Positions 6,672-44,756 of a stretch of DNA of 56,015 nucleotides are shown piece by piece. Each line of letters starts with the position of its first letter. Positions within the stretch are counted from its first letter, which is position 1. The DNA comes from a virus (taxonomy: Duplodnaviria; Caudoviricetes), in IMG/VR virus record IMGVR_UViG_3300046006_001695, positions 1 to 56,015 of that record, one strand, 5' to 3'. Under the pieces are notes generated by a model. That model was not told the origin of the DNA. It made no database searches and saw nothing but the letters and a program-made list of their open reading frames with translations. Made by a program: the position numbers and the translations under genes.

Positions 6672-6673
6672 AA

Positions 6674-12028: not shown

Positions 12029-13163
12029 CTTCAGTTGCCGCCATAATACTCACATCTTCAGGATCAAATTCACTCTGATACTTCATAATCAGTGAATCAC
12101 AAATCTCACTGTAGAGTGCTTCCTTCCGAATAGGGTCTGCATCTAAGAACGCTTGAAAGTCCTTCGATTGAAACTTCGTTTCTTCTCCCGTAGTAGGATC
12201 GACATAGGCATACCATGCCCCTGCCTGCTTGACCATTTTGTTTTCCTTCAATACCTTCAGCCAACTACCCAAATCGTCAATACCACGATTAAAGTAAATT
12301 TCAAATTCTGCCGTGCGATGTGGCGGTCCAAGACGATTCTTGACAACATTTGCCTTCACCTTCACACCGATCACATCACCACTGGAATTACTAATCTTAC
12401 CGAGCAACGACAATCGAAGACGAGTCGATGCGTGGAATGCAATTGCCTTACCACCCGAAGTCGTCCACGGGTCAGAGAACGCCATTGCATTCATCTTCTG
12501 ACGGAGCTGATTCGTGAAGACGAGTGCAATCCGTTCACGGCCCAACAATCCCGTAATCTTACGCATTGCCTTACTGATGATGATAGCCTTGTCGGTCGCA
12601 TATCCATCCTTCCCGAAGTCTGCTTCCATTTCCTTCTTGGTGGATGCGGCGGCAACGGAGTCTACTACGATGGTGACAAGCTTATCCCGTTTCTTGGGGT
12701 CTTTGCGCACTTCTTCGATAATAACCGTGATTGCGTCAAAGATTTCTTCAACCGTCTGCAACTGGACATATACCAACTTATTCATGTCGATACCGACTGC
12801 CTTAAAGAACTCCGCATTGACTGCTGTCTCAGTGTCAATCAGAACCCCTACCCCACCCCTTCTCTGCGTGTTTGCAATCATCTGTGCCCCTATCAGAGAC
12901 TTCCCAGACCCCTCTAATCCAGTGAGTTCGGTGATACGCCCAACCGCAATTCCTCCATTCGGACGATTACTAATTGCCACATCCAACATGGTTGCGCCCG
13001 TTGAAATGAAGTCGGTAAAATCCGTTGGCGTTGATTCTCGTCCATCAAGGAAGAATGCAACTTGGTCACTATCCTTATTCATTTTATTCAAAGATACTGC
13101 AATAAGTTGTGCTAACTCATCACGATCTGGTTCTTGAATAACTTTCTTATCTGGTTTTGCCAT
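12021..13163 (-). CDS. recA: RecA/UvsX recombinase
   Basis: GRITELTGLEGSGKS, IDTE, VVDSVAA, FTNQLR, TSGGKA and KNRL. Confidence 0.96.
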   Translation of the reverse strand: MAKPDKKVIQEPDRDELAQLIAVSLNKMNKDSDQVAFFLDGRESTPTDFTDFISTGATMLDVAISNRPNGGIAVGRITELTGLEGSGKSLIGAQMIANTQRRGGVGVLIDTETAVNAEFFKAVGIDMNKLVYVQLQTVEEIFDAITVIIEEVRKDPKKRDKLVTIVVDSVAAASTKKEMEADFGKDGYATDKAIIISKAMRKITGLLGRERIALVFTNQLRQKMNAMAFSDPWTTSGGKAIAFHASTRLRLSLLGKISNSSGDVIGVKVKANVVKNRLGPPHRTAEFEIYFNRGIDDLGSWLKVLKENKMVKQAGAWYAYVDPTTGEETKFQSKDFQAFLDADPIRKEALYSEICDSLIMKYQSEFDPEDVSIMAATEDE

Positions 13164-13206
13164 ATTATTTTCCTATAGTATAATAACGTGAATGACCCAC
13201 TATGTA

Positions 13207-13235
13207 AATATAGTGGGCCATCCAAGTAAAGTCAA
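13207..13235 (-). promoter_or_regulatory. sigma70-type promoter with inverted repeat over the -10
   Basis: TTGACT-N17-TATATT; inverted repeat 13192-13203 / 13210-13221. Confidence 0.75.
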
Positions 13236-13241
13236 GTGATG

Positions 13242-14036
13242 TTAGTTAAATACTTCGTCAAACTCGTCAATCATATCCTTGACTGACGTTGACTTAAGTT
13301 CTACTGACTTAGCTGCCGTGGGTGAGGTGGGCTTAGTTACAACTTCTTCCTTCACAGGAGCAGCAGTGGGAGGAGCCTTGACTGCATCTGGGTCAAGGTA
13401 TCGTTCGAGCGCAACTTTCAGTTCTTCGTATGAGGGTTCCTTGAAAATTGAACGAATGTCCGGCTGGTCCGTAAGAAACTTCTGAATCTTCTCTGCAGAA
13501 TCCGCAAGTGGCGTCTGATTCGGCTTAGGACGAACCATCGTCTTGGCAAAGTTCGTATCACTCTTTTCCTGCGGGATATATTCTACCACAATGTCACGGC
13601 CGTTCTGTACATCGGTGATATCGCCGTAATCGGGGTCAGAGATAATAGACAACAGTTCGGTGTATACAATCTTGCCAAACGACATGAAGCGAACGCCCTT
13701 ATCTTCTTCACCACGAACAATGATAGGAACGAATGTACGCAACTTTGGACGGAACGGACGTGCCTGCTGCCAATCATCCTTAGAACCGCCGGCCTGTAGT
13801 GCGTCTGCAAATTCTACGATAGGATCACGGTTACCGTTTGAGGTAGGAGACAGATGCGTCTTATTGCCGAGATAATGAAAATATAGTTCAACGAACGGAT
13901 TTTCCTTGTTATCCTTCCACGGAACAATACGAATAACCGTCTTACCTTCCGTGGGCTTCCATAGTGCGTCACTACGGTCGTTCTGACGAGTGAACTGATT
14001 GAGCTTAGACTTGAGTGCTGAGATGTTAATTCCCAT
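13242..14036 (-). CDS. single-stranded DNA-binding protein (gp32-like)
   Basis: LWKP..GKTVIRIVP...PF.E.YFHY, YGDITD...GRD and an acidic C-terminal tail (DEFDEVFN); next to RecA. Confidence 0.85.
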   Translation of the reverse strand: MGINISALKSKLNQFTRQNDRSDALWKPTEGKTVIRIVPWKDNKENPFVELYFHYLGNKTHLSPTSNGNRDPIVEFADALQAGGSKDDWQQARPFRPKLRTFVPIIVRGEEDKGVRFMSFGKIVYTELLSIISDPDYGDITDVQNGRDIVVEYIPQEKSDTNFAKTMVRPKPNQTPLADSAEKIQKFLTDQPDIRSIFKEPSYEELKVALERYLDPDAVKAPPTAAPVKEEVVTKPTSPTAAKSVELKSTSVKDMIDEFDEVFN

Positions 14037-14095
14037 ACGTGTGTACCTCTTAGAGTTTAGAATGTTTTGTTTAGTGAGTTATTGCCCACTTTGTA

Positions 14096-14124
14096 AAGGT
14101 AGTGGGCCGACCTTAGTTTGTCAA
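14096..14124 (-). promoter_or_regulatory. sigma70-type promoter with inverted repeat over the -10
   Basis: TTGACA-N17-TACCTT; inverted repeat GCCCACT/AGTGGGC at 14084-14090 / 14101-14107. Confidence 0.7.
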
Positions 14125-14133
14125 GGGGTGATA

Positions 14134-14541
14134 TTATAATTCTATGATATCGGATAATTTAGTATTAACTACTTTAAGTTTACCGTATGCGGTAACCAAT
14201 ACAGAATTTTTTAATTCATCCCAATTAATTCGAAATGATTTATCTAATACGCCATTGTTTTTCAATTCAATCAATTTATTAATTGCATTTATTGTATAGA
14301 TTGTATTCGTTTGCTTTTTTCTATGTACCGAAATTGTTGACGCCGGTGGTAATGTATTTGAATGTGTTTTCGTAATATTATATGTTAGTACTAATTGATT
14401 GGCATCTTCTATATTTTCTAGTAGATATAATTTATTGAATACTAACACATACGAATTTTTTATAATATCAATAGTGGCGTCTAACTCATCTACGGATGTG
14501 AACGTGCATAATAATTGCGTTTCAGTATTCATATATAACAT
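14134..14541 (-). CDS. hypothetical phage protein
   Basis: Clean 135 aa ORF with its own promoter; function not recognised. Confidence 0.75.
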   Translation of the reverse strand: MLYMNTETQLLCTFTSVDELDATIDIIKNSYVLVFNKLYLLENIEDANQLVLTYNITKTHSNTLPPASTISVHRKKQTNTIYTINAINKLIELKNNGVLDKSFRINWDELKNSVLVTAYGKLKVVNTKLSDIIEL

Positions 14542-29845: not shown

Positions 29846-30694
29846 TTACTTCCCCTTTTGTTGTTTTATGTCAGCAATATACTGATCCATTTTTTTAGTA
29901 TTTTCTATAAAATATTCCGGCGTTGTAAATGGTGCCGTTTGTTTATCAACGAACTCAGGAACATTTATTTTCGTTCTATGTACCGATTCTTGCTCGCCTG
30001 TTGGTTGTACATGAAATGGACACTTTCGTTCCCCATCGGGTGGGTAATTTCCTTTGATATAATTTTTCTGCCATAGATCGCCCTTGATTTCTCCAACACT
30101 TTTTTTCTTTGCAAAATTGGATCGTTCATGATTCCAATTCCAATAATCAGCCGAAAATTGTTCATCGTCGGCAAGTGTTCTATATTCAGGCTCTACATGA
30201 TCAAACACTGTAATATCGACCGGAAATACTTGGCAAATGGGTTCATCTTTTTCAATGATGACTTCTCCAGGATGGGTGAATCGCCAATTCATGGTAAACG
30301 TAAAGGGAACCCAATACGTTTCCACAATTCCAGATAACGCAACAACATTGTGTTTTGGATAGTTTGGAGCGCCCATAACATATAACGCATATGGATATTC
30401 TGTTTTAAACAAATGTCCCGTATGCCATGTAAATGTTGCTTCTCCGAACAACGAAGTAGCAGACCCTACTCCATCAAGTGTAGTTACTTTTATATCTGAC
30501 GGGAGTATTCCGCCATTCCAACTAACAACAAATTTTGATGGAGATAGTATCTCCCAACCGTACCCGTTTGCTATACTCAGTGGTAAACATCTATATGGGT
30601 TTTTTGCATTTGCCGCATCCATCCAATCTCGTTTTAGATTTGCGGGCCTGATTTTATACGGATTGCCATGAACAGGATAGACTATTAGTTTCAT
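29846..30694 (-). CDS. conserved beta-rich protein, DUF6065-like
   Basis: RDWMD...YRCLPLSIANGYGWEI, GIVETYWVPFTFTMNWRFT; start at MKLIVY, open frame to 30769. Family name recalled, not searched. Confidence 0.7.
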   Translation of the reverse strand: MKLIVYPVHGNPYKIRPANLKRDWMDAANAKNPYRCLPLSIANGYGWEILSPSKFVVSWNGGILPSDIKVTTLDGVGSATSLFGEATFTWHTGHLFKTEYPYALYVMGAPNYPKHNVVALSGIVETYWVPFTFTMNWRFTHPGEVIIEKDEPICQVFPVDITVFDHVEPEYRTLADDEQFSADYWNWNHERSNFAKKKSVGEIKGDLWQKNYIKGNYPPDGERKCPFHVQPTGEQESVHRTKINVPEFVDKQTAPFTTPEYFIENTKKMDQYIADIKQQKGK

Positions 30695-30701
30695 AATACA
30701 A

Positions 30702-31235
30702 TTATTTGGGGAATGACCAGTGCATGAATAACTGACATAGATGTTGATTTTCTGCACAAACCAAATCATTACGCCAATGTGTCATTTGCGTGCCCAGCAT
30801 CATGCCGCCGTCGCCACGCTCAATATTAATGGGAACTTCGTTGCCGAGCTTATCAATACACCACAGTGGCCATTCTGTATCAAGGGTATTATCTAATGTG
30901 ATAGAAAGTGTATAGTTCAACCCGTCACGATCAGTGTGTCGATGTAAAGTACCGCCATTATAATAAATACGAGCAAACGAATTTGCTGGAGTCATTTTAA
31001 CTCCTAGTTCATGTTCCAATCGTGGAGTTAATTCACGAAGTGCCGCTTCAAATTCTGGGTGATTTCCTCCATACGAATTATCATAAAACGCGGCGTTGCC
31101 ACCTTCATATACAAGTTGTTCTGCATGTTTCATATCCAGTAGTAATTTAGTAAAATCATTACACTGCTGGTCCGATAATACATTCTTAATATATGAGTAT
31201 CCATGTTTATTAAAAAACTCTGCGGGTGTTTCCAT
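30702..31235 (-). CDS. 2OG-Fe(II) oxygenase
   Basis: RIY...LHRHTDR (HxD) and distal THWR (His) on a double-stranded beta-helix pattern. Confidence 0.82.
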   Translation of the reverse strand: METPAEFFNKHGYSYIKNVLSDQQCNDFTKLLLDMKHAEQLVYEGGNAAFYDNSYGGNHPEFEAALRELTPRLEHELGVKMTPANSFARIYYNGGTLHRHTDRDGLNYTLSITLDNTLDTEWPLWCIDKLGNEVPINIERGDGGMMLGTQMTHWRNDLVCAENQHLCQLFMHWSFPK

Positions 31236-31264: not shown

Positions 31265-31293
31265 AATATACTTCAATAAATTTTAATTGTCAA
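31265..31293 (-). promoter_or_regulatory. sigma70-type promoter for the oxygenase
   Basis: TTGACA-N17-TATATT, overlapping an ATATTTAT motif. Confidence 0.7.
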
Positions 31294-32090
31294 GTGGTAG
31301 ATTCAATATGATTGTTATAATATTCCAACACCTTATTGTGAAACCGTATATATTCGTCTGTAGTATGACTTCTGAATCTATATGCGTTGTAGTTATCGTT
31401 TGGATTGTAGTTCTCCAGATACGATATTAGCTTTCCACCATCGGTTGCATGATAAAATGTTATATTATGTGGTTCATCCCAATATGCATAGTTTAATTTA
31501 TACATCAATATATATCCCACCAGAACATCTTCATGCTTTAACCACGGAAGTTCAGTCGAGGGCGCGGCCAAGTAATCTTCTTTATGGTTAACTAATTGTT
31601 CCGTGCAATCTCTCGACATATATGTGAAATATCCCGTACAAAATGGATAGGTATATTCAATTAAATTTCTTACGCCGTCATATTGTCTTTCTTTTCTTTC
31701 TAAAGAATGCAAAAATTTATGGAGCTTATTACTATCAATATATGTGGTATTACAAATTCTTACAATATAATCAAATTCTAAATTGTTAAGACACCATTCA
31801 TATGCCAAGATTAATTTTTCTGTCCGAGGGTCGATGCCATCATGTACGACATCAGTAGTCCCGCATACTAAAATATTATTTCCGTCAATGATATTCAATG
31901 ATACATTACCTTTGGCTGGTATAGTTCCAAGCGTAGATATTTCTGATCCATCGGTATTATATCCACCGTAATAATGAATTACCGTAACATCTGGGTGTGG
32001 TATTTTTGACCATGTTGTTTTTGATAGCTCATCCACTACACTATAGGACGATTCAACTGTATTTTGTACTAGTATTACTATTTTTGTCAT
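31290..32090 (-). CDS. glycosyltransferase, GT31-like (GT-A fold), divergent
   Basis: EKLILAYEW...FDYIVR...YID, G...YMSRD and EDVLVG resemble GT31 motifs; the DxD position is degenerate (CNT). Confidence 0.6.
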   Translation of the reverse strand: MTKIVILVQNTVESSYSVVDELSKTTWSKIPHPDVTVIHYYGGYNTDGSEISTLGTIPAKGNVSLNIIDGNNILVCGTTDVVHDGIDPRTEKLILAYEWCLNNLEFDYIVRICNTTYIDSNKLHKFLHSLERKERQYDGVRNLIEYTYPFCTGYFTYMSRDCTEQLVNHKEDYLAAPSTELPWLKHEDVLVGYILMYKLNYAYWDEPHNITFYHATDGGKLISYLENYNPNDNYNAYRFRSHTTDEYIRFHNKVLEYYNNHIESTT

Positions 32091-32097
32091 AACATTC

Positions 32098-33093
32098 TCA
32101 TTGAAAAGTATTTACTACATGTTTTTTTACACTTACCCACCCTTCAGAATTTATAGTACTATTTCCATATGGAAGATTTATAAAGTCGGACATTTTATTA
32201 TTGACTAAATCAAAAAAATCAAACCCTATAACATCACATACATTTTTTAATACATAAAAAAACTGACTGCGTTGAAAGTTTAGTTTTGCCAAAAAATTAT
32301 TTCGTATTACAGTTGCATCCAATTTCATATCCAATAATAAGTGTATGGATTCTTGTATAGAATAGTCATTTCTATTACATACGATTGAATTGGAATTATC
32401 TAACCACAACTCTCTACCTCCCAGCGTATTAGGTAACGATAAACCATAGACCGCTTCAGTTTTAAAATGTGGATAATAATTTTCTTTTTGTGCATCAGTT
32501 TTGATTTTTACTGATACCACGGGAATGCCGCACGATAGCATTTCTCCCACAGATAAACATGATCCTTCCGATTCTGTTGTCATCAATCCACATTTTGCCA
32601 TATTATAATATTCTGTCATTTTTTCTCCCAGAACGGGATATTCTTTCAGTCTATTCATAATTAAAATATTTAATGGGGTATATGGCACTTCAAACAAATT
32701 AATTCCTTTTGCGGGTCTTCCTGGAAATATGCAATCTATTGTTTTATTTATGTTTGGACTTATGTTATATCTTTCTTCGTTAGTAAAAATGTACTCGCTT
32801 ATCGTGTGTGAGGTTACTCCTTTTTGCATACAAAGTTTTGCTATTTCTAAATTATTAGATAATACCGTGAATTTTTCTGGATTTAACCCGTGAAAGTTTT
32901 TATCTAGAAAAAAGTTTATGAGTTCGGGCATAACCCCGTGCGTTAGTATAATATGATAGTCATCAAATGTTTTTAAGAGTTCAATATTGAGTTTATCAAA
33001 TTTACCAAATCGTACACAATCAAACATAGTTAACAATTTATTGTCTTGAACTATAGATGTTGTATATTCATCTAACATAAATTTTTTTGTCAT
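32098..33093 (-). CDS. glycosyltransferase, GT-B fold (GT4-like)
   Basis: GRPAKG and EGSCLSVGEMLSCGIPVV (Ex7E motif). Confidence 0.7.
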   Translation of the reverse strand: MTKKFMLDEYTTSIVQDNKLLTMFDCVRFGKFDKLNIELLKTFDDYHIILTHGVMPELINFFLDKNFHGLNPEKFTVLSNNLEIAKLCMQKGVTSHTISEYIFTNEERYNISPNINKTIDCIFPGRPAKGINLFEVPYTPLNILIMNRLKEYPVLGEKMTEYYNMAKCGLMTTESEGSCLSVGEMLSCGIPVVSVKIKTDAQKENYYPHFKTEAVYGLSLPNTLGGRELWLDNSNSIVCNRNDYSIQESIHLLLDMKLDATVIRNNFLAKLNFQRSQFFYVLKNVCDVIGFDFFDLVNNKMSDFINLPYGNSTINSEGWVSVKKHVVNTFQ

Positions 33094-33104
33094 TATTTAT
33101 TTTC

Positions 33105-36100
33105 CTATATATTAGACCGTGGCAAAAAGTTTCTTTCACTTATTTTTAAATTAACAAAATCAATTCCAGAAAATCCCATAAATTCTCGTATAGATCTAGT
33201 AGTTCCCTTTCCATATTTCCCTAAATCTCCGCCAAATATAAGTGAATTTAATCGTTTCATTGCATGCGCATGTTTTTGATTTCCAACACTACTTCCGTGA
33301 ACTTGCCAATGTTTTGGACACAACCCCGGATCTCCACTCCTATGCCATGTTATAATTTGTTTTGGAGTAAATATGTCATATCCATGTGTAAAAGAGCGTA
33401 TGGAAAGTGCTAATTCTTCGCCAGTATAATAATGTTCAGGATCTTGCTCAACATCTACCACCCAACTACCTTGTGTAAATACAAATCCACCGTACAATAG
33501 TGGCACGCCTACATTTTTAAATCCGGTATTTAATTCATTTTGATATCCACCATATTCTACCCATAGTTCAGAAACAATGTTCCTAATTTTTACAATATCA
33601 ATCTTATCAAGTTCTGTTTCATGTTGAAAATATACATCTACTCCCTTTTCATCATCTCTGATATACGATGGCGAGCAATATGATAGTAATGGTTTGCGTA
33701 TTCCCCTAGATTTTAAATCTTCATAGTCATTGATTATTAATTCGTCCCAATTTTGTATAAATCGAAGATGTGAATCTATTTGCAAAGAGTAGTGCTCTCC
33801 ATTGTAAGCTTGTTGTGCTATTTGCCGAGCCCAACAACCGCCCTGTCCAATTGAATAGTGATATTTTTTTATCTGTATATTATATTGAGATACTAAATCG
33901 TCAATAGCCGATTCGTTCGTGCCTTCTTTTTCATCATATTGCAGACAGATAGAAAACACTAAATTTTCTGGATACTTTGCTTTGTTAATACAGTCCAGTA
34001 TAGTATTCCGTAATTCCAAATCTAAATGGCTAGCAATTGCTACAAATATTTTTTTCGTGTCATGCATCTCAATTGGACGGTGAAGTGAGTTGGTTCTATT
34101 ACTTTCATCTTCTTTTTCTTCAGTTTGTTTAAATTCAATCGAAAGAAATTCTTCCAGGTTCTTTAAAGACCGTGTATATGAATTACCAGTATTAAATAAT
34201 ACATCATTAATAACTTCAATGGAGTGGTCTTGTTGTAAATTATTGTGATTTATTTCTCTGTATCGTGTGTTATCTGGGTTATGTGCGTTATAATTGTGCC
34301 ATATTACCGTTTCGGCCGGCAATTTTATGTCCCATCCATGTAAATATGATGAAAATGTTTGATAATCTTCCTCTCCTTTGCACAACATGGTAGTTGGAAC
34401 TTTTATCTCTTGAACCCATTCAACCGGAGCAAATATAAATCCCGCCCCTATCCATTTTGTGTCAACCACATCATAGTCATCCAGCGCGGCCAAATTTCGT
34501 GTATGGAGTCTATTATCCGTGGGGGCTTCACTAAAAAATTCTCTAATTACTAGTGGCGCATTTGTTGGATATTTTAGTTCGATGTCATCCAATTCAAATC
34601 CATTTGGATAAGTGGAAATAACAACACGGTTGTGTGGCATACTTTTGTGTTGATGTATTAGAATCCCATCCCAATGTTTTTTGAATCTGCTATGTGCATC
34701 TATTTGAAAGAAATATTGTTCGTCCGTAATAAGTTCGTTTTTTATTTTTTCACGTGCCCACACTACCCCCAACGATTCTCCGTGGGGAGTAAATATAATT
34801 TTTATATTTGGGAAGTTTTCTGCTAGTAATTTATTATAATATTCTTCGGTATCTTGTAGATGCACTCCCACCGTTATGCGACTTATATCCTGTGCATTTT
34901 TGTACAAATTATGCAAGGTTGGAATTAACTGCGTATCTCTGTAACTGGCAATCGAAACAAGTATAGTGTTTTGTTTCATATCCCACACATCTTTAAATTC
35001 TCTAGCCCAATTTGCGATGAAATTTTTTGTATCTATAAAATTACATTGCGTTTCTTGATTGTACACACTAGTATTTACATAAAAATTTTTATCGTCTATA
35101 TCATTCATGTAACCACGAAGTCTATACACATATGATGATAAGGTAGAATAGTCATTGCCTATAAATTTAATTGCTCTAGAACAAATTAGTTGTTCTATGA
35201 TAGGGATAAAATTATAGTGGGCATCTATATCTGCGGCATTGGATACATCGTCGTAAAAATACAATTTATAATGTGTAGATAAAACATCAAAAAATAATTT
35301 ATCTTGTTCGTCGGTTGCTATATACAACACTGAATTTTCTGGCACAATCTCTTTTATATTTTCATAAATTTGCTCTGCTGATATAAACAAAGATTTGTAC
35401 TGAAAATCATTTCGTCTAATGTGTATTGCATAATACTGCTGATTACCCAACCATTCTACGCCTTTCCACCCCAAATCAAAAATTTCATTTGTGTAATGGA
35501 CATGTTTAGCTATCAATTGTTTAAGTTCAACATCAAGATGTGTGTATATTGTTTGATAGAAATTACCTAGCAGTTTACCATCAAAAAATAAACATTCATC
35601 GGTTCCTATCAATTCTAACATGTTCGTTATTGGCCTATGTTTTGTAAATTTTTCATTGGGTCTACTCTTAGAAAAATTTAATACATGATTATCGGGTTCA
35701 GTTATTACTTTACTTATTGATTTGACCGCATCAAATGTATTGTCAATATTTTTAATTTGGCAAAATTCATCAAATTGCATAAATTTAATACCAATATCAT
35801 TTATATCAAAAAAATCTTCTAAGCCCATTTGGTCTTTAAGAAGATACATGTTATATTTCGGAGGTAATACCAAAGTTTTATTGGTTAGATATGAAATACA
35901 TACGGCCAATTCTAACGACATTCGTATATTATTAAATCCACCGGGCCACGGTTTCAGTATTAAATACCCATCGGCACCGTCATAATTAATAAATAAATTT
36001 TCAAAATTCCATTTTAAATGATATAAATAATCGGTGCGTTCTTGTGTAACATTCATAAGTAACAATTCCTCTATTTTATTTCTAGCACTATGCGCTGATA

Positions 36101-36878
36101 TTGGTATTGCTTGATTAAATGTATAATCTTGTTTAAAGAACAATGTAGTGTTATAAGTTTCGTCGGTTATGACATTGGGAAAATGTATAATTTGACTTAC
36201 TTCAGTGCTATTATTTTCTTTCCATGCCGTACAACATCCAAAATCTTCACGATATTGAATATGTAAATTATTTTTCTTAACTGCATAATCCAATCCCCAC
36301 ATTTCTGCTTCCCATCGTTTTGTTTTCCTGCGTATTTCTTCTGATGCAGTTTTGTAGTCCTGCATAATAGTTTTTACTGTTTTAAACTTCATACAAAACG
36401 GATACATTATTCCCTTGCCGTATTCTTCGTTGGGTAACGCCGTCCAATCTTCCATCGGTACATAGTGAATAAACCGTTGAGCAATTACTTCGTTGTCTGT
36501 CGGTTTGTATGTGATGGGTTCTAAAAATATCATATCAGGATCAAGAAATAACAGTGTATCATCATCTTGAAAGTGATTGTTGTCACACAACCATTTTATT
36601 GACATATACTTGTTAGGAATTGCTCCCCACCAATATTTTTCTCCCCGCTTTGCTTCTTCTTCTGCGTGTTCCCACTCCAATGCATAATCGGGCAAATCAA
36701 TAACTTCTACATCTGTATCGGTGTATACATCTAACGGACGATTGTTACCCATCTCGTCTGCGCATCTAAGAAATATTAATTTTCCTTGTTGTTTAACCTT
36801 TTTTCGTGACCAGTTCAATAATCTACATTGCCACGATTGATAATCACTATTGCTGGTTGGTACTATGATATAATCCAT
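33105..36878 (-). CDS. four-domain protein O-glycosyltransferase: HPAT/SGT1 (GT95/GT96)-like + O-fucosyltransferase-like + two GT60-like GlcNAc-transferase domains
   Basis: Domain 1: YQSWQCRLL, NKYMSIKWL, LDPDMIF, WEAEMWG. Domain 2: GGFNNIR, LVLPP, HIRRNDF, YIATDE, EQLICSRA.KFIG...STLS. Domains 3 and 4: VSIASYRD/VAIASHLD, QIDAHSRF...WD/QIDSHLRF...WD, GEE, WH. Open frame to 36911. Confidence 0.8.
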   Translation of the reverse strand: MDYIIVPTSNSDYQSWQCRLLNWSRKKVKQQGKLIFLRCADEMGNNRPLDVYTDTDVEVIDLPDYALEWEHAEEEAKRGEKYWWGAIPNKYMSIKWLCDNNHFQDDDTLLFLDPDMIFLEPITYKPTDNEVIAQRFIHYVPMEDWTALPNEEYGKGIMYPFCMKFKTVKTIMQDYKTASEEIRRKTKRWEAEMWGLDYAVKKNNLHIQYREDFGCCTAWKENNSTEVSQIIHFPNVITDETYNTTLFFKQDYTFNQAIPISAHSARNKIEELLLMNVTQERTDYLYHLKWNFENLFINYDGADGYLILKPWPGGFNNIRMSLELAVCISYLTNKTLVLPPKYNMYLLKDQMGLEDFFDINDIGIKFMQFDEFCQIKNIDNTFDAVKSISKVITEPDNHVLNFSKSRPNEKFTKHRPITNMLELIGTDECLFFDGKLLGNFYQTIYTHLDVELKQLIAKHVHYTNEIFDLGWKGVEWLGNQQYYAIHIRRNDFQYKSLFISAEQIYENIKEIVPENSVLYIATDEQDKLFFDVLSTHYKLYFYDDVSNAADIDAHYNFIPIIEQLICSRAIKFIGNDYSTLSSYVYRLRGYMNDIDDKNFYVNTSVYNQETQCNFIDTKNFIANWAREFKDVWDMKQNTILVSIASYRDTQLIPTLHNLYKNAQDISRITVGVHLQDTEEYYNKLLAENFPNIKIIFTPHGESLGVVWAREKIKNELITDEQYFFQIDAHSRFKKHWDGILIHQHKSMPHNRVVISTYPNGFELDDIELKYPTNAPLVIREFFSEAPTDNRLHTRNLAALDDYDVVDTKWIGAGFIFAPVEWVQEIKVPTTMLCKGEEDYQTFSSYLHGWDIKLPAETVIWHNYNAHNPDNTRYREINHNNLQQDHSIEVINDVLFNTGNSYTRSLKNLEEFLSIEFKQTEEKEDESNRTNSLHRPIEMHDTKKIFVAIASHLDLELRNTILDCINKAKYPENLVFSICLQYDEKEGTNESAIDDLVSQYNIQIKKYHYSIGQGGCWARQIAQQAYNGEHYSLQIDSHLRFIQNWDELIINDYEDLKSRGIRKPLLSYCSPSYIRDDEKGVDVYFQHETELDKIDIVKIRNIVSELWVEYGGYQNELNTGFKNVGVPLLYGGFVFTQGSWVVDVEQDPEHYYTGEELALSIRSFTHGYDIFTPKQIITWHRSGDPGLCPKHWQVHGSSVGNQKHAHAMKRLNSLIFGGDLGKYGKGTTRSIREFMGFSGIDFVNLKISERNFLPRSNI

Positions 36879-37824
36879 ATTGCCCATGTATCCAATTAAA
36901 TGTTTTTGCAATACCTTCTTCCAATGTGATAGACGGTTCCCAATTTAATAAATTTTTAACTTTTTCGTTGTGAGAATTTCTTCCACGGACGCCTAATGGA
37001 CCGTCTATATATTTACGCTGTAACTTTATATTTGCTGTATTTTCTATAATAGTAATCAACTCGTTCACCGATACCATACGGTCTGACCCAATATTAAATG
37101 CCGATTGATGGTTACTATCCATTACTTGAATGGTTCCTTCGACGGCATCATCAATATACAAGAAAGAACGGGTTTGTTCACCGTCACCCCACACTTCAAT
37201 CTCATTAGAATTGGTGTGTAACGCATGGGCCACTTTTCGACATAATGCGGCGGGAGCCTTTTCTCGTCCCCCTTGCCAGGTACCTACTGGACCATATACA
37301 TTGTGATATCGTACAATTCGGGTTTCAATTCCATAATCTTCAGAGAAGTGACGGCACATTCTTTCCATAAATAATTTTTCCCACCCATATCCATCTTCGG
37401 GGTCGGCAGGATATTCGGTCCCTTCAATTAAAGGTTCTGGGATAGTGGTGTGTTGTTTGTATGAAGGATATATACATGCCGTCGAGGCAAACAGAAATTT
37501 CTTTACTCCACTCACTTGTGCCGCCTTTAGTGTATTGGTATCGGGGATGATAGATAACATACACAGTGTTTTGTTATGTTCAATAAATCCCATACCACCC
37601 ATATCACATGCCATATGATAGACTTCATCAATGGTTTGAGTGGCATGTAGCGCAATGTCATACTCAGTTAAGTCTCCGACAATATTTTCTGCGGAGTCTA
37701 TCACTTGATACCATTTCTCTAATGGTTTTTTGTCAATTGCCCGAACCTTGTATGATTCAGATAATTTTTTGACGAGATGACCGCCGATAAATCCACCGGC
37801 GCCGGTAACCAATATTGTTTTCAT
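36847..37824 (-). CDS. GDP-mannose 3,5-epimerase-like NAD-dependent epimerase
   Basis: GAGGFIG, DMGGMGFI, ACIYP, YGWEK, GGREKAPAALCRK, WGDGEQTRSF and GVRGRNS closely match the GME subfamily. Confidence 0.88.
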   Translation of the reverse strand: MKTILVTGAGGFIGGHLVKKLSESYKVRAIDKKPLEKWYQVIDSAENIVGDLTEYDIALHATQTIDEVYHMACDMGGMGFIEHNKTLCMLSIIPDTNTLKAAQVSGVKKFLFASTACIYPSYKQHTTIPEPLIEGTEYPADPEDGYGWEKLFMERMCRHFSEDYGIETRIVRYHNVYGPVGTWQGGREKAPAALCRKVAHALHTNSNEIEVWGDGEQTRSFLYIDDAVEGTIQVMDSNHQSAFNIGSDRMVSVNELITIIENTANIKLQRKYIDGPLGVRGRNSHNEKVKNLLNWEPSITLEEGIAKTFNWIHGQYGLYHSTNQQ

Positions 37825-37888: not shown

Positions 37889-39109
37889 TTATTCAGGTGC
37901 ACCGCATACACTGCCGCCAACACATACTAATGAACAACACTCTTCATTAAAACTACATGATTCTCCAGTACCTAAGCACGACACTGGCGATGGTGTTGGT
38001 TCCGGCACCACCGGCGATGGCGTTACCGGCGACGGTGTTGGTGATACTGGTGATGGGGTTGGTACTGAGAAACATGTTCCATTTAATTCAAAGTCACACG
38101 GACATTCTGCTGGACATGTACCTAATGAGTTTCCTGAACCGTCTGTACATGCACTACCACATCCAAGCGCCGATGTTGGTGACGGCGTTACTGGCGACGG
38201 TGTTACTGGCGACGGTGTTACTGGCGACGGTGTTACTGGTGACGGTGTTACTGGTGACGGCGTTACTGGCGACGGTGTTGGTGACGGTGTTACTGGTGAC
38301 GGTGTTACTGGTGACGGCGTTACTGGCGACGGTGTTGGTGACGGCGTTACTGGCGACGGTGTTGGTGACGGCGTTACTGGCGACGGTGTTGGTGACGGCG
38401 TTACTGGCGACGGTGTTGGTGACGGAGTTGGTGCCACGCAAGCAGAACAATTAGTTGTCTCGCACGATCCAATACCACACGCAGTTGTTGTATAGTAGTT
38501 GCGTAAGAAGACTCCTCCCCCAATTGATTCGCATGAAATTGTCGTTCCTACTACACATGCTACTGGTGACGGTGTTACTGGTGACGGTGTTACTGGTGAC
38601 GGTGTTACTGGCGACGGTGTTACTGGCGACGGTGTTACTGGCGACGGTGTTACTGGTGACGGCGTTGGTGATGGTGTTGGCGTTACTGGCGATGGCGTTG
38701 GTGATGGTGTTGGCGCTACTGGCGATGGTGTTGGTGAAGGTGTTGGTGCCGGTGTTACTGGTGATGGTGTTACTGGTGATGGTGTTACTGGTGATGGTGT
38801 TGGTGAAGGCGTTGGTGAAGGCGTTGGCGCCGGTGTTGGTGACGGCGTTGGTGCTACAGGTGACGGTGTTGGCGCAGGTGCATAACACAAAAAATAATTG
38901 CGTGGTTTTGCTGCAATTAAAGTATAATTTACTTCGGTATATCCACTTGGACATGATGCCGACGGCGTTCCCGATGCACCTGTAGTCCCATATGACGCAG
39001 TTAATGCGTATGCAGGAATGTATGACGGATTATCGATGGTATTTACACGACTTGCCGTGACCGCATAAGAACTGGTTGACGGAATGCCAAATGGAAAAAA
39101 TATACTCAT
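37889..39109 (-). CDS. Pro/Ser/Thr-rich (VTPSP/TPSP) mucin- or extensin-like protein with three 6-Cys modules
   Basis: Three repeat blocks, each followed by a 6-Cys module; N-terminus is paralogous to the two upstream small genes; tightly coupled (TAATG) to its neighbour. Confidence 0.85.
37980..38880 (-). repeat. coding 15/12 bp tandem repeats (GGTGACGGTGTTACT-type)
   Basis: Blocks at about 37980-38065, 38170-38435 and 38563-38880; unit variation is mostly at third codon positions of the VTPSP frame. Confidence 0.95.
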
Positions 39110-39306: not shown

Positions 39307-39546
39307 CTACACATTACAGAATTCAACATATCCTGACCCCGAACCAGCCTGTAGCGCTACATATTCTGCAAATGATATTAAACATACACTTTTTCCCCGT
39401 GATCCTGACTGTGGAAACAATACCGTTCCCGCAGTAGATGCGGATATGACCGTTTTAATAAAACTTGCCGACACTGCACATGATGCAGTTACTGCATAGG
39501 ATGCGGTATATAATGACCCCGACCCAAATGGATATACCGACAACAT
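39307..39546 (-). CDS. small putative structural protein
   Basis: VYPFGSGSLYTASYAVTAS start, related to the two downstream genes. Confidence 0.7.
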   Translation of the reverse strand: MLSVYPFGSGSLYTASYAVTASCAVSASFIKTVISASTAGTVLFPQSGSRGKSVCLISFAEYVALQAGSGSGYVEFCNV

Positions 39547-40490: not shown

Positions 40491-40811
40491 CTACGGTTCT
40501 GGCGTAGGCTCAGGAGTAGGTTCCGGCGTTGGTTCAGGTGTTGGTTCCGGTGTTGGCTCCGGTATTGGTTCAGGAGTAGGTTCTGGTGTTGGTACTGGTA
40601 GATATTCCAATCCTAACGCATCACATATTTCGTCTTCATCCCACGTTTGCTTACTCTTGGCAGCTGCGGCAGCAATTAACGCAGTATCCGATAAATTTGC
40701 CTGTGCTTGTAATTGTCCTACATCAGTAACATCAGTGTAATAAATAACTTGTACCGCATCGGAATTGACGTTTTTACTATAATACATTAGGTACTTTAAA
40801 AATGCTGACAT
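40491..40811 (-). CDS. small protein with C-terminal (TPEP)n tail
   Basis: Globular N-terminus followed by about nine TPEP/IPEP units. Confidence 0.75.
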   Translation of the reverse strand: MSAFLKYLMYYSKNVNSDAVQVIYYTDVTDVGQLQAQANLSDTALIAAAAAKSKQTWDEDEICDALGLEYLPVPTPEPTPEPIPEPTPEPTPEPTPEPTPEPTPEP

Positions 40812-40860: not shown

Positions 40861-41613
40861 TTAAATTCCAAATCTGCTGCGATTGGCGTTAAAGTTTTGA
40901 CGAACTTCGTCTGCGGTTAATGCAACATTTTTATAAATTCTTACGGTAGCAATTTTTCCTGTTGTTCTACTACCACCGTTTATTATACTTGCAATAGAAC
41001 CACTTGCCGCCGCGCCCGACGATGTAAACACTGTAGCCAACCCATTGGTAATAGTACTCACTAAACTACCCGTCATATAATATGAAATGTTTGTACCTTG
41101 GCGAGTTATACAAAATTGATACCAATTGTTTGCAGAAATACTACTTGCAATAGACGAGGTATATACTATTTGCGGCGGCGACCCCGTTCCTTGTGCGGCT
41201 GCTATTCTATACCCACCGCTTCCACTAACAATACTCAAATCACATTCAGTAATACCGCCCGAACTTTTTCTAAATAATGTTGCGGTAGTAGTGGCGGCGT
41301 CAATGCCCGGTAACGTATTAAAATTTACCCATGCTTCTATACTATAATCTGCGGTGCCCATGCGTAAATTAACATTGTTTAACACAACTGCACGGTCGTC
41401 TATTCCATCAAAGACAATGCTCCCGCCATTTGCCGTATCAAATGTGGGTCCATTTGTTAATGTTGCATTATTATTATTCCCACTTAAATCGGTCCATGTG
41501 ATTCCACTTTCCGGATACGAATTATCATTCATGGCATCTACCCAAAGTACTAATCCATTTTTAATTATCTTAGAGTAATTGGATTGAACAATTCCATGCG
41601 TTGCTGCAATCAT
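40861..41613 (-). CDS. LamG/concanavalin A-like lectin domain virion protein
   Basis: GLVLWVDA...SYP.SG.TWTDLSGNNN...FDG.DD...ALT..EV.QNFNA.R.RFG; start at MIAATH, open frame to 41640. Confidence 0.82.
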   Translation of the reverse strand: MIAATHGIVQSNYSKIIKNGLVLWVDAMNDNSYPESGITWTDLSGNNNNATLTNGPTFDTANGGSIVFDGIDDRAVVLNNVNLRMGTADYSIEAWVNFNTLPGIDAATTTATLFRKSSGGITECDLSIVSGSGGYRIAAAQGTGSPPQIVYTSSIASSISANNWYQFCITRQGTNISYYMTGSLVSTITNGLATVFTSSGAAASGSIASIINGGSRTTGKIATVRIYKNVALTADEVRQNFNANRSRFGI

Positions 41614-42350
41614 ACCGTAATATCCCCGAACAAATACCATGCGTTTGCGTCAGTTTTTATCAATGTTGCCGCACTATATCGGTTTGCAATTTTTAAAGCA
41701 TTGTTTGCACTAAGTAACGTTACGCCAGTGCTAGCACTGGTAAACCGTGTTTGCCCCGACCCACTTTGTGTAAGCATAACTTGGGCACCTATTGGAAAAT
41801 TTACGGTAGAACTTGATGGTACGGTCACGATATTTGCCCCGCCCGATGCCATGAATATTAATCTTCCTTCATCCCCAAGTGCAATTGTATAATTTGTAGT
41901 TTGTGTACTTAAATTCAATCGGTTTCTGACTACGCCATTCATAATAACATCATTAGCAAAACTTGCCGACCCTGACACTGTAAGCCCCGTGCTGCCGGTA
42001 ATAATCAATGACCCCGTAATAAATACGCTACCACTAATATCTAAATCGGCGGTGGGTACTGCTTTATCTATACCAATCCGACTACCAGTAACAACAAGGG
42101 TATTTCTATTAAAGGTACCCATGACCACTCTATCGTCGCTAAAGACTTCTAGTATGGGTAACCCAGAAATGTCATTCACACTCATGAGTGAGCCAGATAA
42201 TTGGTCAGTAATAGAGAATAATGACCCGCTGTTACCATAGAACGCCACACTACCGGACGCTTCTACTTGGAGACGAATCGTATCGTTATTTGCTGACCCA
42301 CTAAATTGTATACTGGCAGAACCAGGTGTGATAATAATATTATTTGGCAC
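41610..42350 (-). CDS. tail fibre-related protein
   Basis: Ser/Gly/Thr-rich; IGI...P...LDISGS spike repeat; C-terminal FPIG...W.L.GD tip domain. Confidence 0.7.
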   Translation of the reverse strand: MPNNIIITPGSASIQFSGSANNDTIRLQVEASGSVAFYGNSGSLFSITDQLSGSLMSVNDISGLPILEVFSDDRVVMGTFNRNTLVVTGSRIGIDKAVPTADLDISGSVFITGSLIITGSTGLTVSGSASFANDVIMNGVVRNRLNLSTQTTNYTIALGDEGRLIFMASGGANIVTVPSSSTVNFPIGAQVMLTQSGSGQTRFTSASTGVTLLSANNALKIANRYSAATLIKTDANAWYLFGDITV

Positions 42351-42670: not shown

Positions 42671-43381
42671 TTATACTCCGAATCTACTACGAGTGGCGTT
42701 AAAGTTTTGAAGGACTTCTGTTGCGGTGAGTGCACGGTTGTATATTAAAAATGAAGATGATTTACCATTTATATAATCAACAATACTATTAGCATAATAT
42801 CCACTATTTAAAGTGATTGTTGTATTTGGTGTTAAAAAGGTATTAGTATCACTTACCGTATTTTGTAGTATTCCATTTTCATATAAACTAATGGCGGCGG
42901 TGGTTAATACTGCTGTATAATTATACCAAATATTAGTTACTATTACGTTATTAGAGTTTACTGGTACGATACCTCCACTACTTAAAACTATTGAAAAATT
43001 TACATTATTTAATACAACACCCTCTGAAGTTGCGCCTGCCTTTTGAAAATAAAAACGTCCTCTATCGATTGCTTGAGATGTATCTTGACCAAAAAATGTT
43101 TGATATCCCGTTAAACCACTTAGGTTTACCCATATTGAAAATGTACAAGGTCTATCTAAATTTTGTATGGGAGTTGAAATGTAATCATTCGTTCCATCAA
43201 AAACAATACTCCCGCCATTTCCACCATTAAATGTTGGACCATTGGTTAGTGTTCCGGTATTATTATTGCCACTTAAATCGGTCCACGTTGTTCCACTGCG
43301 CGGATATGATTTCGTATTTGCTGCATCTAAATATAATACCAATCCTTCTTCTGATATATTCGGACCTCTACTAACACTCAT
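42671..43381 (-). CDS. LamG/concanavalin A-like lectin domain virion protein
   Basis: Same terminal motifs as 40861-41613 and 43385-44086. Confidence 0.85.
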   Translation of the reverse strand: MSVSRGPNISEEGLVLYLDAANTKSYPRSGTTWTDLSGNNNTGTLTNGPTFNGGNGGSIVFDGTNDYISTPIQNLDRPCTFSIWVNLSGLTGYQTFFGQDTSQAIDRGRFYFQKAGATSEGVVLNNVNFSIVLSSGGIVPVNSNNVIVTNIWYNYTAVLTTAAISLYENGILQNTVSDTNTFLTPNTTITLNSGYYANSIVDYINGKSSSFLIYNRALTATEVLQNFNATRSRFGV

Positions 43382-43384
43382 AAT

Positions 43385-44086
43385 TTATACTCCAAATCTG
43401 CCGCGAGTGGCGTTAAAGTTTTGTAGAACTTCGTTTGCGGAGAGTGCTCTTCTATAAATTGTAGCAGCACCTAAATTTCCTTGAAATGTAAAAGTTGTTG
43501 AACCGATACGAGCATTTGGTGTATTTCCTGTTACCGATAACATTCCATTTGTATCTGATACCTTACGCTCACCGTTTATGTATACTTGACGAGACGCTCC
43601 ATTAATCACACCTACAACATTTATATATTTATTTTGTAAATGATAATTATCTTGATGTGCTAACCAATTGGTTGCTGTATCTGTTGTATTTCTCGTAAGT
43701 AATGCTATTGTTCCCGTACTGACTACTGCGTCTTCATTCAATACTAATGCAAATAATAATAATCCACTATTTCCCGTCAATTGGATTACTCTAGATATTG
43801 TTGACTTACTATATTTTATCCACACACTTACTGTTAATGTTTGTAAATTGTCACCAGTAATACTATTACTAGACGGTAATAGAATTGTATCATCGGTCCC
43901 GTCAAATACCATCACTCCAGAATTTTCTGAAGAAAATGCAACGCCCGCAACTAAACTTCCACTATTATTATTCCCACTTAAATCTGCCCACGCTGTTCCA
44001 CTACCCGGATACGACTTCGCATTTGCCGCATCTAAGGCAAGTACTAATCCATCAGTGACTATTTTTGGACTATAGGATGTAGACAT
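43385..44086 (-). CDS. LamG/concanavalin A-like lectin domain virion protein
   Basis: GLVLALDAAN.KSYPGSG...QNFNATRGRFGV. Confidence 0.85.
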   Translation of the reverse strand: MSTSYSPKIVTDGLVLALDAANAKSYPGSGTAWADLSGNNNSGSLVAGVAFSSENSGVMVFDGTDDTILLPSSNSITGDNLQTLTVSVWIKYSKSTISRVIQLTGNSGLLLFALVLNEDAVVSTGTIALLTRNTTDTATNWLAHQDNYHLQNKYINVVGVINGASRQVYINGERKVSDTNGMLSVTGNTPNARIGSTTFTFQGNLGAATIYRRALSANEVLQNFNATRGRFGV

Positions 44087-44087
44087 A

Positions 44088-44756
44088 CTACTCCACAGTC
44101 GTCAATGGAGCAACGTCTTTACGTGTTGCTTGTACATAGTAGAAACAATCAATTGGTGTATTGGAATTAATAATTACGGTATTATTTTCAATGTTTTGTA
44201 CATATAATATTTGTTGTGTACCAATTGGAGTTAATTGTACGGTAATACTATCGGGGTCTATTAACCATTCCCATTCTTCTGGTAGTTGAATAACTGTATT
44301 TTTTGTTAATCGTCCCCGCACATATACGCCGTGTTCTGGGCCTTCCAATACACCGTAGATAAGTTTCTTGCCCAGCAATAATTGATGGTCAATTTTGAAA
44401 CTCTTGGTGGTTGCTTGGAATGCTCCAAGAACGGTTGCTGAACCCGTGATACTTAATGCGTTACTGCCCGTAATAATCAACGACCCACTAATAACTGCAT
44501 TACCCGTGTATGGGAATGCGGTTGCCGTAACACCCGTTAATCCTGTGCCATTGCCCTTGAATGACCCTGTAAATGAACCGGTAAACGGAAGAGTTAATGA
44601 ATTAAATTGCAGGGAACTAGAGACTGTACCAGCGGGAATTGATCTAAATCCACTTAACACCGCTGAACTGCTTACTGCTGCATCAAAATTTACTATAATA
44701 GACGAGGATACGCTATTATCAAATATTTGTAGTCCAGATATTTTTGCTGTTGTCAT
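44088..44756 (-). CDS. tail fibre-related protein with chaperone-like C-terminal domain
   Basis: FTGSFTGSF repeats, then KSFKIDH...LEGPEHGVYVRG...LPEEW...TVQLTPIG. Confidence 0.7.
   Translation of the reverse strand: MTTAKISGLQIFDNSVSSSIIVNFDAAVSSSAVLSGFRSIPAGTVSSSLQFNSLTLPFTGSFTGSFKGNGTGLTGVTATAFPYTGNAVISGSLIITGSNALSITGSATVLGAFQATTKSFKIDHQLLLGKKLIYGVLEGPEHGVYVRGRLTKNTVIQLPEEWEWLIDPDSITVQLTPIGTQQILYVQNIENNTVIINSNTPIDCFYYVQATRKDVAPLTTVE

Follow-up and report, generated by a model that had tools for sequence, protein, structure and literature searches.

The O-glycosylation of proline-rich repeats by HPAT, GT60 and O-fucosyltransferase (O-FucT)-type enzymes is seen as biology of the eukaryotic secretory pathway or of the protist cytoplasm. 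In the extensin pathway of plants and green algae, prolyl 4-hydroxylase (P4H) acts first, and HPAT (GT95) then glycosylates hydroxyproline (Hyp) and SGT1 (GT96) glycosylates Ser. The hydroxyproline glycosylation of Skp1 in Dictyostelium and Toxoplasma proceeds through PhyA, then Gnt1 (GT60), then the two-domain PgtA. The mucin O-GlcNAc (O-linked N-acetylglucosamine) transferases of Trypanosoma cruzi are single-domain GT60 enzymes of the Golgi membrane that act on Thr in Thr/Pro-rich mucin repeats. POFUT1 and POFUT2 (GT65/GT68) fucosylate Ser/Thr in small Cys-rich modules, the folded EGF or TSR domains, in the lumen of the endoplasmic reticulum (ER). Among phages, mycobacteriophages glycosylate their virion proteins with phage-encoded transferases, and to our knowledge a few small transferases are all that has been described for the glycosylation of phage virions. 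Here we describe a gene for a four-domain glycosyltransferase in IMGVR_UViG_3300046006_001695, a 56-kb IMG/VR virus record (hereafter the window, meaning the whole stretch of 56,015 nucleotides). Judging from its domains, neighbours and relatives, we think it rather probable that the enzyme O-glycosylates the phage's own mucin/extensin-like Pro/Thr/Ser-repeat fibre proteins in the host cytoplasm.

Domain composition of the transferase

The original prediction had proposed one polypeptide at 36878-33105 that fuses HPAT/SGT1-like, O-fucosyltransferase-like and two GT60-like domains. The single polypeptide was borne out by an open frame and by homologue starts that fit ATG 36878. The gene and its domains are as follows.

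33105..36878 (minus strand): four-domain glycosyltransferase gene, about 1257 amino acids (aa) from ATG 36878; open frame to TTG 36911
36012..36878 (minus strand): domain 1, HPAT-family-like GT-A domain with a DPD motif (D124, D126), assigned from relatives and AlphaFold2 (AF2) fold
35106..35966 (minus strand): domain 2, O-fucosyltransferase-like (PF10250, Pfam), HIRRND motif
34122..34970 (minus strand): domain 3, first GT60 (PF11397, Pfam), motifs ASYRD and IDAH
33153..34049 (minus strand): domain 4, second GT60 (PF11397, Pfam), motifs ASHLD and IDSH; encoded by its own 307-aa gene in the closest relatives

The single frame runs from 36911 to 33105 on the minus strand and comprises 1268 codons counted from the TTG. 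ATG 36878 is the likely start, because homologues begin at the equivalent of M12 of the frame (sequence MDYI...) and because members of a 98%-identical cluster are 1257 and 1260 aa long. An assembly slip as the origin of the fused frame was ruled out by these same members, which come from other assemblies.

We searched for homologues over 5.8 billion proteins and found 136, and the alignment used below consists of the query and the 120 that were listed (121 sequences). Both the O-fucosyltransferase-like domain and the two GT60-like domains gave direct Pfam matches far above the cutoffs, as had been predicted. PF10250 matched aa 316-602 (nucleotides about 35966-35106) with E 7.5e-25 and 88.6 bits against a cutoff of 31.5, and the match spans model positions 1-326 of 326. 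All 121 of 121 aligned sequences keep H497 and R499 of this domain, and 120/121 keep R500 and D502. When the two GT60 pieces were scanned separately, PF11397 was matched with E 6.2e-39 for nucleotides 34080-35039 and E 1.1e-43 for 33108-34079, with scores of 134.9 and 150.5 bits for the two domains against a gathering cutoff of 21. The two copies differ, as the original prediction had noted: ASYRD/IDAH are present in one and ASHLD/IDSH in the other, and their mutual identity is 24%. We take the D-x-H and ASxxD of GT60 to be metal/nucleotide-binding motifs. In the first copy, D738 and H740 of IDAH are found in 121/121 and 120/120 aligned sequences, and in the second, D1046 and H1048 of IDSH in 49/54 and 45/53. 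A search of the whole transferase against the PDB by sequence gave no match.

The N-terminal region can be counted as a real domain because its AF2 model (predicted local distance difference test score, pLDDT, 88.4) has a GT-A fold and because it carries a DPD motif. The two Asp residues of this motif hardly vary in the alignment (D124 in 118/118 sequences, D126 in 117/118). The best solved Foldseek matches of the model belong to GT6, a family of retaining GT-A enzymes (E about 1e-9, TM score about 0.5), and a profile of the domain returned only chance-level rows from the PDB (E 0.016 to chondroitin synthase). With phmmer against 1.84 billion representatives we found 69 relatives at E<=1e-3, some of which stand alone at 250-340 aa and a few of which have N-terminal hydrophobic anchors; a word-based search for stand-alone N-domain proteins gave just 8 matches, fragments for the most part. 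The phmmer search linked the domain to P0131 (E 8.5e-30) and P0104 (E 7e-28), both carriers of the HPAT family PF23452. We aligned the window's domain with 35 relatives, namely 3 N-domains from related loci and 32 shorter phmmer hits out of the 69 (alignment A2). The DxD is present in 36/36 sequences of this alignment, and PF23452 is matched by 25 of the 36 (best E 1.8e-40); the domain of the window itself matches 0 families at E<=0.01. PF23452 is also present in 31 of the 120 listed full-length homologues, including P0009 (69% identity to the query). P0094, with an HPAT match of E 2.3e-10, aligns colinearly with the transferase at 37% identity over 1022 residues. By sequence comparison, the N-domain is thus an HPAT-family-like GT-A domain through transitive homology and not a member by its own score. 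The HPAT part of the HPAT/SGT1-like assignment stands by way of the relatives and does not stand for the window's own domain.

The transferase looks soluble, because no 19-residue segment exceeds a Kyte-Doolittle mean of 1.25. The absence of a hydrophobic segment fits the soluble, cytoplasmic enzyme of the original prediction.

A candidate acceptor in the same cassette

The genes around the transferase lie on the same strand and are tightly packed or overlapping. In minus-strand order, they begin with LamG-type and tail-assembly-chaperone genes, followed by a 106-aa (TPEP)n open reading frame (ORF), a 282-aa ORF, and the 79-aa and 62-aa ORFs. Then come P0122, an epimerase gene, the transferase, a GT1-like gene, the 266-aa and 177-aa genes, DUF6065 and a SNF2 helicase. 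The features of the cassette are as follows.

39307..39546 (minus strand): 79-aa ORF whose N-terminal motif (YPFGSGSLYTASYAVTAS) is shared by the 62-aa ORF and P0122; counterpart in related locus L012
39109..39297 (minus strand): 62-aa ORF, N-terminal motif in common with P0122; counterpart in L012
37889..39109 (minus strand): P0122, 406-aa candidate acceptor, read from the sequence as three (TPSPV/PTPSP)n blocks with Cys-rich modules between them
36847..37824 (minus strand): GDP-mannose 3,5-epimerase homologue (PDB match, Pfam Epimerase); its 3' end overlaps the 5' end of the transferase gene
32098..33093 (minus strand): GT1/GT4-like glycosyltransferase, a weak match (PF13692, E 3.4e-4, below cutoff), directly downstream of the transferase
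31290..32090 (minus strand): 266-aa protein, a cassette companion with homologues in 13 related loci
30702..31235 (minus strand): 177-aa protein resembling 2-oxoglutarate (2OG)-Fe(II) oxygenases, H100-x-D102 ... H153, by homology to the C-terminal domain of the relatives' double hydroxylase
29846..30694 (minus strand): DUF6065 protein (PF19541, E 8.5e-75), start at M26, predicted dUTPase-like beta-barrel

P0122, two genes upstream of the transferase, is the leading candidate acceptor on the basis of its composition. It contains 106 Pro, 65 Thr and 67 Ser (59% Pro+Thr+Ser), 87 [TS]P dipeptides and 20 Cys. PHROGs had nothing for P0122 or its 282-aa neighbour. The cassette comes after the LamG-type and tail-assembly-chaperone genes, and because of this position a fibre protein as acceptor would fit. 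The Pfam families of the transferase, and of the PLOD-GT domain added in some homologues, have names that refer to protein O-glycosylation (Hyp, hydroxylysine, Ser, Thr).

The epimerase gene points to a possible donor. Its best PDB match was 2c59, the Arabidopsis GDP-mannose 3',5'-epimerase (E 9.1e-88, 298 bits), and the top five rows were all GDP-mannose 3,5-epimerase (9.1e-88 to 6.2e-87), with the next family at 108 bits and 4.5e-30. In NCBIfam, which seemingly has no GDP-mannose 3,5-epimerase model, the best match was GDP-fucose synthase at 115 bits, sub-threshold. In the mechanism that we propose, the two GT60 domains would transfer GlcNAc from UDP-GlcNAc onto Thr/Ser or hydroxyproline. 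The O-FucT-like domain would use a GDP-L-sugar, probably GDP-L-galactose made by the neighbouring epimerase rather than GDP-fucose, given the homology of that neighbour to GDP-mannose 3,5-epimerase. The HPAT-like domain may add a further sugar onto Hyp or Ser. The predicted product is a mucin/extensin-like bottle-brush glycoprotein that would become a virion fibre or decoration. The enzyme may work as an assembly line, as the original prediction suggested, with the two GT60 copies perhaps using different acceptors. For the modified residue, the sugars, the order of action and the location in the virion, we infer from what the families are known to do and from the gene neighbourhood.

The target could also be a different protein, either a subunit of the capsid or tail, which is the situation in mycobacteriophages, or a protein of the host, like the Skp1 that Gnt1 modifies. 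The GT60 enzyme Gnt1 and HPAT target specific protein sites, mycobacteriophages are known for glycosylating virions with their own transferases, and many of the related loci described below have no Pro-repeat ORF nearby. We nevertheless regard another protein target as unlikely. Besides the repeat protein, only the 106-aa (TPEP)n ORF stands out as a Pro-rich target in the window, and the linkage of repeat genes to the transferase outlasts changes of gene order: the repeat gene lies upstream in both the window and L012, but follows the epimerase in L004, L005 and L007, its position varying by clade.

Several smaller observations concern the repeat gene and its neighbours. The 106-aa ORF (40491-40811, minus strand) ends in about nine TPEP/IPEP repeats and has a Pfam match to trypanosome procyclin (PARP) by composition; it could be a second acceptor, or simply a linker protein. 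The 79-aa ORF, the 62-aa ORF and the repeat protein share the N-terminal pattern F/Y-P-x-G ... S-Y/F-A-x-x-A-S, which may be a docking or recognition segment. The counterparts of this trio in L012 lie at 6512-6760, 6770-6964 and 6978-8984, and the first two ORFs are 62-82 aa long across the window and L012. A strict regular expression for the motif matched in the window only and understates its conservation, as direct reading of L012 gave diverged copies. Long shadow ORFs on both strands overlap the repeat gene at 37957-38985, where local GC reaches 0.476; they are a by-product of the (TPSPV)n coding repeats and not extra genes. The 266-aa protein had no Pfam or NCBIfam match, and homologues of the GT1-like gene adjoin the transferase in L044 and L049.

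Linkage to hydroxylase, epimerase and repeat genes in related loci

To describe the related loci (denoted L with a number), we used a comparison set of 71 fetched viral transferase-related loci, 56 multi-domain and 15 mostly O-FucT-only, or 72 with the window. A Pro-repeat ORF was defined as one of at least 100 aa in which some 50-residue segment contains 15 or more Pro and 42 or more residues from the set P/T/S/A/V/E. As controls, we used 160 loci of related phages centred on sheath or DNA polymerase (2353 kb). Pro-repeat ORFs were found in 28 of the 71 transferase loci (39 ORFs in 1192 kb) and in 0 of the 160 controls (Fisher p = 5e-17, with loci that are not independent). They were present in 18 of the 56 multi-domain loci and in 10 of the 15 mostly O-FucT-only loci. 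The linkage of transferase and Pro-repeat ORF is therefore not universal. In the closest clade (69% identity), the order repeat protein, epimerase, transferase was found in 6/6 loci, four of them complete and two cut inside the repeat ORF.

Many relatives also encode a 417-aa two-domain oxygenase (Pfam PF13640), the N-terminal half of which matches only prolyl 4-hydroxylases in the PDB (9/9, best 1.2e-24). The hydroxylase is present in 46 of the 58 N+FucT loci and in 44 of these 46 it immediately precedes the transferase, and the linkage was also found in two bacterial chromosomal copies. An epimerase of at least 40% identity is present in 26/72 loci.

The tailoring genes differed among the cassettes. 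Carbamoyltransferases were found in 41/72 loci, the window not among them. They are of the NodU/CmcH type and occur as one or two per related cassette (12756-14303 and 15215-16777 in L007, 13735-15291 and 15990-17624 in L012, 8156-9577 in L009). A methyltransferase and a GT17-like gene are also present in the L009 cassette. The window has no carbamoyltransferase, methyltransferase or GT17-like gene and has the GT1-like gene instead. Because the tailoring genes vary in this way, the glycan probably differs between clades.

These genes also bear on whether the enzyme builds or remodels a polysaccharide (host capsule, lipopolysaccharide or free glycan), for example altering the surface of the infected cell, with the Pro-repeat genes merely nearby fibre genes. 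Carbamoyltransferases, a methyltransferase and GT17 are typical glycan-tailoring enzymes, the cassette contains a GT1-like gene, and PF10250 also takes in plant cell-wall polysaccharide transferases. The 38 of 56 multi-domain loci without a Pro-repeat ORF in the fetched flank would also fit. However, the transferase has no membrane segment, and Pfam scans of the neighbours gave no flippase, polymerase or lipid-carrier transferase family, with no search aimed at them. The prolyl 4-hydroxylase that directly precedes the transferase in 44 of 46 related loci would have no role in polysaccharide synthesis, and the enrichment of Pro-repeat ORFs over the controls likewise speaks for a protein acceptor. 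We therefore consider a polysaccharide product improbable, to about the same degree as a different protein target.

Phage backbone and oxygenase-like gene of the window

The long ORFs of the window are all on the minus strand, and its CheckV completeness is about 26%. Among its genes are those for a tail sheath, a baseplate protein of T4 type, a DNA polymerase of family B and a SNF2 helicase; the best cultured match of the polymerase is that of Microcystis phage Mel-JY01 (44.5% identity). On the sequence of these backbone genes, the phage is a distant T4-like myovirus. Three LamG_3 (concanavalin-like) paralogues and an adjoining ORF with a weak match to a Chlorovirus glycoprotein repeat (E 0.0057) occupy 40861-41640, 42671-43381, 43385-44086 and 44088-44756 (minus strand), just upstream of the cassette. 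The LamG_3 proteins and this neighbour are probably fibre or receptor-binding proteins.

The window has a small oxygenase-like gene next to DUF6065 where most relatives have the 417-aa hydroxylase. Across the 72 loci, 11 have the pair, 57 the hydroxylase, 0 both and 4 neither. The loci with the pair are the window (29846-31235, minus strand), L011-L016, L026, L044, L061 and L062. The 177-aa protein is similar to the C-terminal domain of the hydroxylase (BLASTP E 3e-7; hhalign probability 94%, E 1.2e-7), and its Atlas model has a TM score of 0.88-0.89 to part of 390-410-aa PF13640 proteins. Some relatives of the 177-aa protein are labelled 'ferrochelatase' in the Atlas, apparently a wrong annotation passed on between records. 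DUF6065 belongs to a family found mainly in viruses, and in these loci its gene is always paired with the 177-aa oxygenase-like gene. Its AF2 model (pLDDT 87) matched dUTPase/dCTP-deaminase barrels in Foldseek (E about 2e-4) and dUTPases in VIA-align (Z up to 10). Neither the 177-aa protein nor DUF6065 had a match in the PDB by sequence. DUF6065 was considered as the missing prolyl hydroxylase and dropped, as its model matches dUTPase/dCTP-deaminase barrels and no oxygenase was among the matches listed. With no oxygenase other than the small oxygenase-like gene found in the window, and a dUTPase-like fold for DUF6065, a hydroxylation step in the window phage is doubtful.

The oxygenase-like gene and the dUTPase-like fold in the cassette, the adjoining SNF2 helicase and the T4-like backbone would also fit a cassette that hypermodified phage DNA by hydroxylation and then glycosylation of a base, as in glucosyl-hydroxymethylcytosine of T4 or base J. 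We regard this as very unlikely, since the relatives' oxygenase matches only prolyl 4-hydroxylases in the PDB and all transferase domains come from protein O-glycosylation families. Scans of the cassette ORFs gave no hydroxymethylase or TET/JBP family, with no search aimed at them, and SNF2 and baseplate genes belong to the backbone, which flanks the cassette in L012 too.

Assessment of the proposed function

O-glycosylation of the phage's own repeat proteins appears the most economical reading because it accommodates the domain families, the conserved motifs, the linkage to hydroxylase, epimerase and tailoring genes, and the repeat proteins that end the fibre-gene block. Several points weigh against it. 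Activity, donor, acceptor and glycan are all predictions from sequence. The N-terminal ~300 aa had no Pfam match even at E<=10 (aa 9-310 scanned), so that the window's own domain falls short of the HPAT model, and the breadth of PF10250, with its plant polysaccharide transferases, makes a non-protein acceptor conceivable. The 38 of 56 multi-domain loci have no Pro-repeat ORF in the fetched flank, with many flanks ending at contig ends, and a further 16 polymerase-centred controls with a transferase match include none with a Pro-repeat ORF. Among 10 Pro-repeat proteins scanned, the known virion domains amounted to just one crAss muzzle C-terminal domain, and the Cys-rich modules would form no disulfides in the cytoplasm. 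A collagen-type prolyl hydroxylase was not detected by tblastn of the window with three hydroxylase proteins, with about 26% of the genome covered, and DUF6065, half of the pair that replaces the hydroxylase in 11/72 loci, folds like a dUTPase and not an oxygenase.

More tentatively, aquatic T4-like phages may run a plant-like pathway for Hyp-rich glycoproteins inside bacteria, in which an oxygenase, the HPAT/O-FucT/double-GT60 enzyme and phage-made GDP-L-galactose would yield O-glycosylated (TPSPV)n virion fibres. We hold this fuller version at somewhat less than an even chance. Under such a pathway, the (TPSPV)n proteins would bear cysteine-knot beads, the four-domain fusion would be a self-contained builder of a defined multi-sugar O-glycan, and the phages that run the pathway would form a widespread, uncultured group.

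If own-protein O-glycosylation is correct, many environmental phages make mucin/extensin-like glycoproteins with enzymes and sugar nucleotides that they provide themselves. The enzyme would then be a soluble, bacterially expressible four-in-one O-glycosyltransferase with its natural substrate alongside, of use for glycoengineering. It would also offer a testable route to the roles of phage glycan coats (adhesion, protease resistance, shielding) and a fresh approach to how GT95, GT60 and GT65/68-type enzymes arose in evolution. Should the plant-like pathway also be correct, there would be a large viral reservoir of enzyme families now held to be eukaryotic.

Distribution of the domain architecture

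The homologues of the transferase come nearly all from uncultured phages. The full set of four domains is present in 48 of the 121 aligned sequences; another 69 contain the first three, and the remaining 4 show other combinations. Extra C-terminal domains were also found, namely PLOD-GT in 9/120 listed homologues, GT2, Glyco_trans_1_2 and F5/8 type C. The closest clade (69% identity) encodes the enzyme in two genes, one of 923 aa and, six bases away, one of 307 aa for a GT60 domain, and in another clade a carbamoyltransferase lies between genes of 917 and 308 aa.

No record among 50,697 deposited phage genomes covered 80% of the transferase, and only 6 had single-domain matches. In this search, Microcystis phage Mel-JY01, the source of the nearest cultured DNA polymerase, had no copy of the transferase. 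One cultured phage, Synechococcus phage S-SCSM1, has a single-domain O-FucT gene (102768-103751) beside a gene annotated as 2OG-Fe(II) oxygenase or 'ferrochelatase'. In 185,579 species genomes, the multi-domain form was present in only about nine records, mostly short contigs of metagenome-assembled genomes (MAGs) labelled Saprospiraceae or Bacteroidota, together with two long bacterial contigs or chromosomes. The two long ones are L238 (4.3-Mb chromosome, Candidatus Azotimanducaceae MAG) and L241 (712-kb contig, Paraglaciecola MAG), which carry the multi-domain transferase with a hydroxylase nearby; L241 additionally has two Pro-repeat ORFs and an epimerase-like gene.

In the full-text literature, with most subscription journals outside the search, we found no paper on such a phage HPAT/GT60/O-FucT/prolyl 4-hydroxylase system or on mucin-like O-glycosylated tail fibres. 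The view of the original prediction that no protein with this architecture had been described thus agrees with the literature; it does not extend to sequence space, where the architecture is common in uncultured phages.

Comparison with known systems

The extensin pathway of plants and green algae has several components in common with the phage system. Both have an HPAT-family GT-A domain, P4H beside the transferase in the relatives of the window, Ser/Thr-Pro-repeat acceptors (putative in the phage) and a plant-type GDP-mannose 3,5-epimerase. They differ in that the phage enzyme has no membrane anchor and would work in the cytoplasm of a bacterium, where there is no Golgi, and that its HPAT-like domain is fused to O-FucT and GT60. 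The phage repeats are TPSPV or TPSI and not Ser-Pro4. In addition, the window has no P4H domain detectable by tblastn, and its N-domain falls below the HPAT model.

The Skp1 pathway resembles the predicted phage system in having a soluble cytoplasmic GT60, prolyl hydroxylase and GT60 together, and a multi-domain transferase for glycan extension. However, Skp1 is modified at a single Pro of one folded protein, whereas the phage candidates are long repeat proteins, and the phage enzyme has two GT60 paralogues (24% identical) and other partner domains. For a TPSPV acceptor without hydroxylation, the closest analogue would be the GT60 enzymes acting on T. cruzi mucins, which, unlike the predicted phage enzyme, are single-domain proteins of the Golgi membrane.

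With POFUT1 and POFUT2, the phage enzyme shares PF10250 with an HxRRxD-type motif, and the phage repeat proteins also have small Cys-rich modules; Pfam gave neither an EGF nor a TSR domain for those repeat proteins that were scanned. Unlike these ER enzymes, it would act in a reducing cytoplasm, and the neighbouring epimerase suggests GDP-L-galactose and not GDP-fucose as donor. The mycobacteriophages provide a parallel to what we propose here, being tailed phages whose virion proteins are O-glycosylated in the cytoplasm of the host by enzymes of the phage. Their transferases, in contrast, are small, single-domain enzymes that act on the C-termini of capsid and tail-tube subunits, and their systems have no hydroxylase, epimerase or mucin-like repeats.

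The nearest described analogue that we found is A111/114R of Chlorovirus PBCV-1, which is reported to combine three glycosyltransferase functions in one protein (PMC7826918). A111/114R and the predicted phage enzyme would be alike as viral, multi-domain, cytoplasmic glycosyltransferases for a structural protein of the virus itself, working without the host ER/Golgi. PBCV-1 differs in being a eukaryotic giant virus with N-linked glycans on its capsid protein, and the likeness proposed here is one of function.

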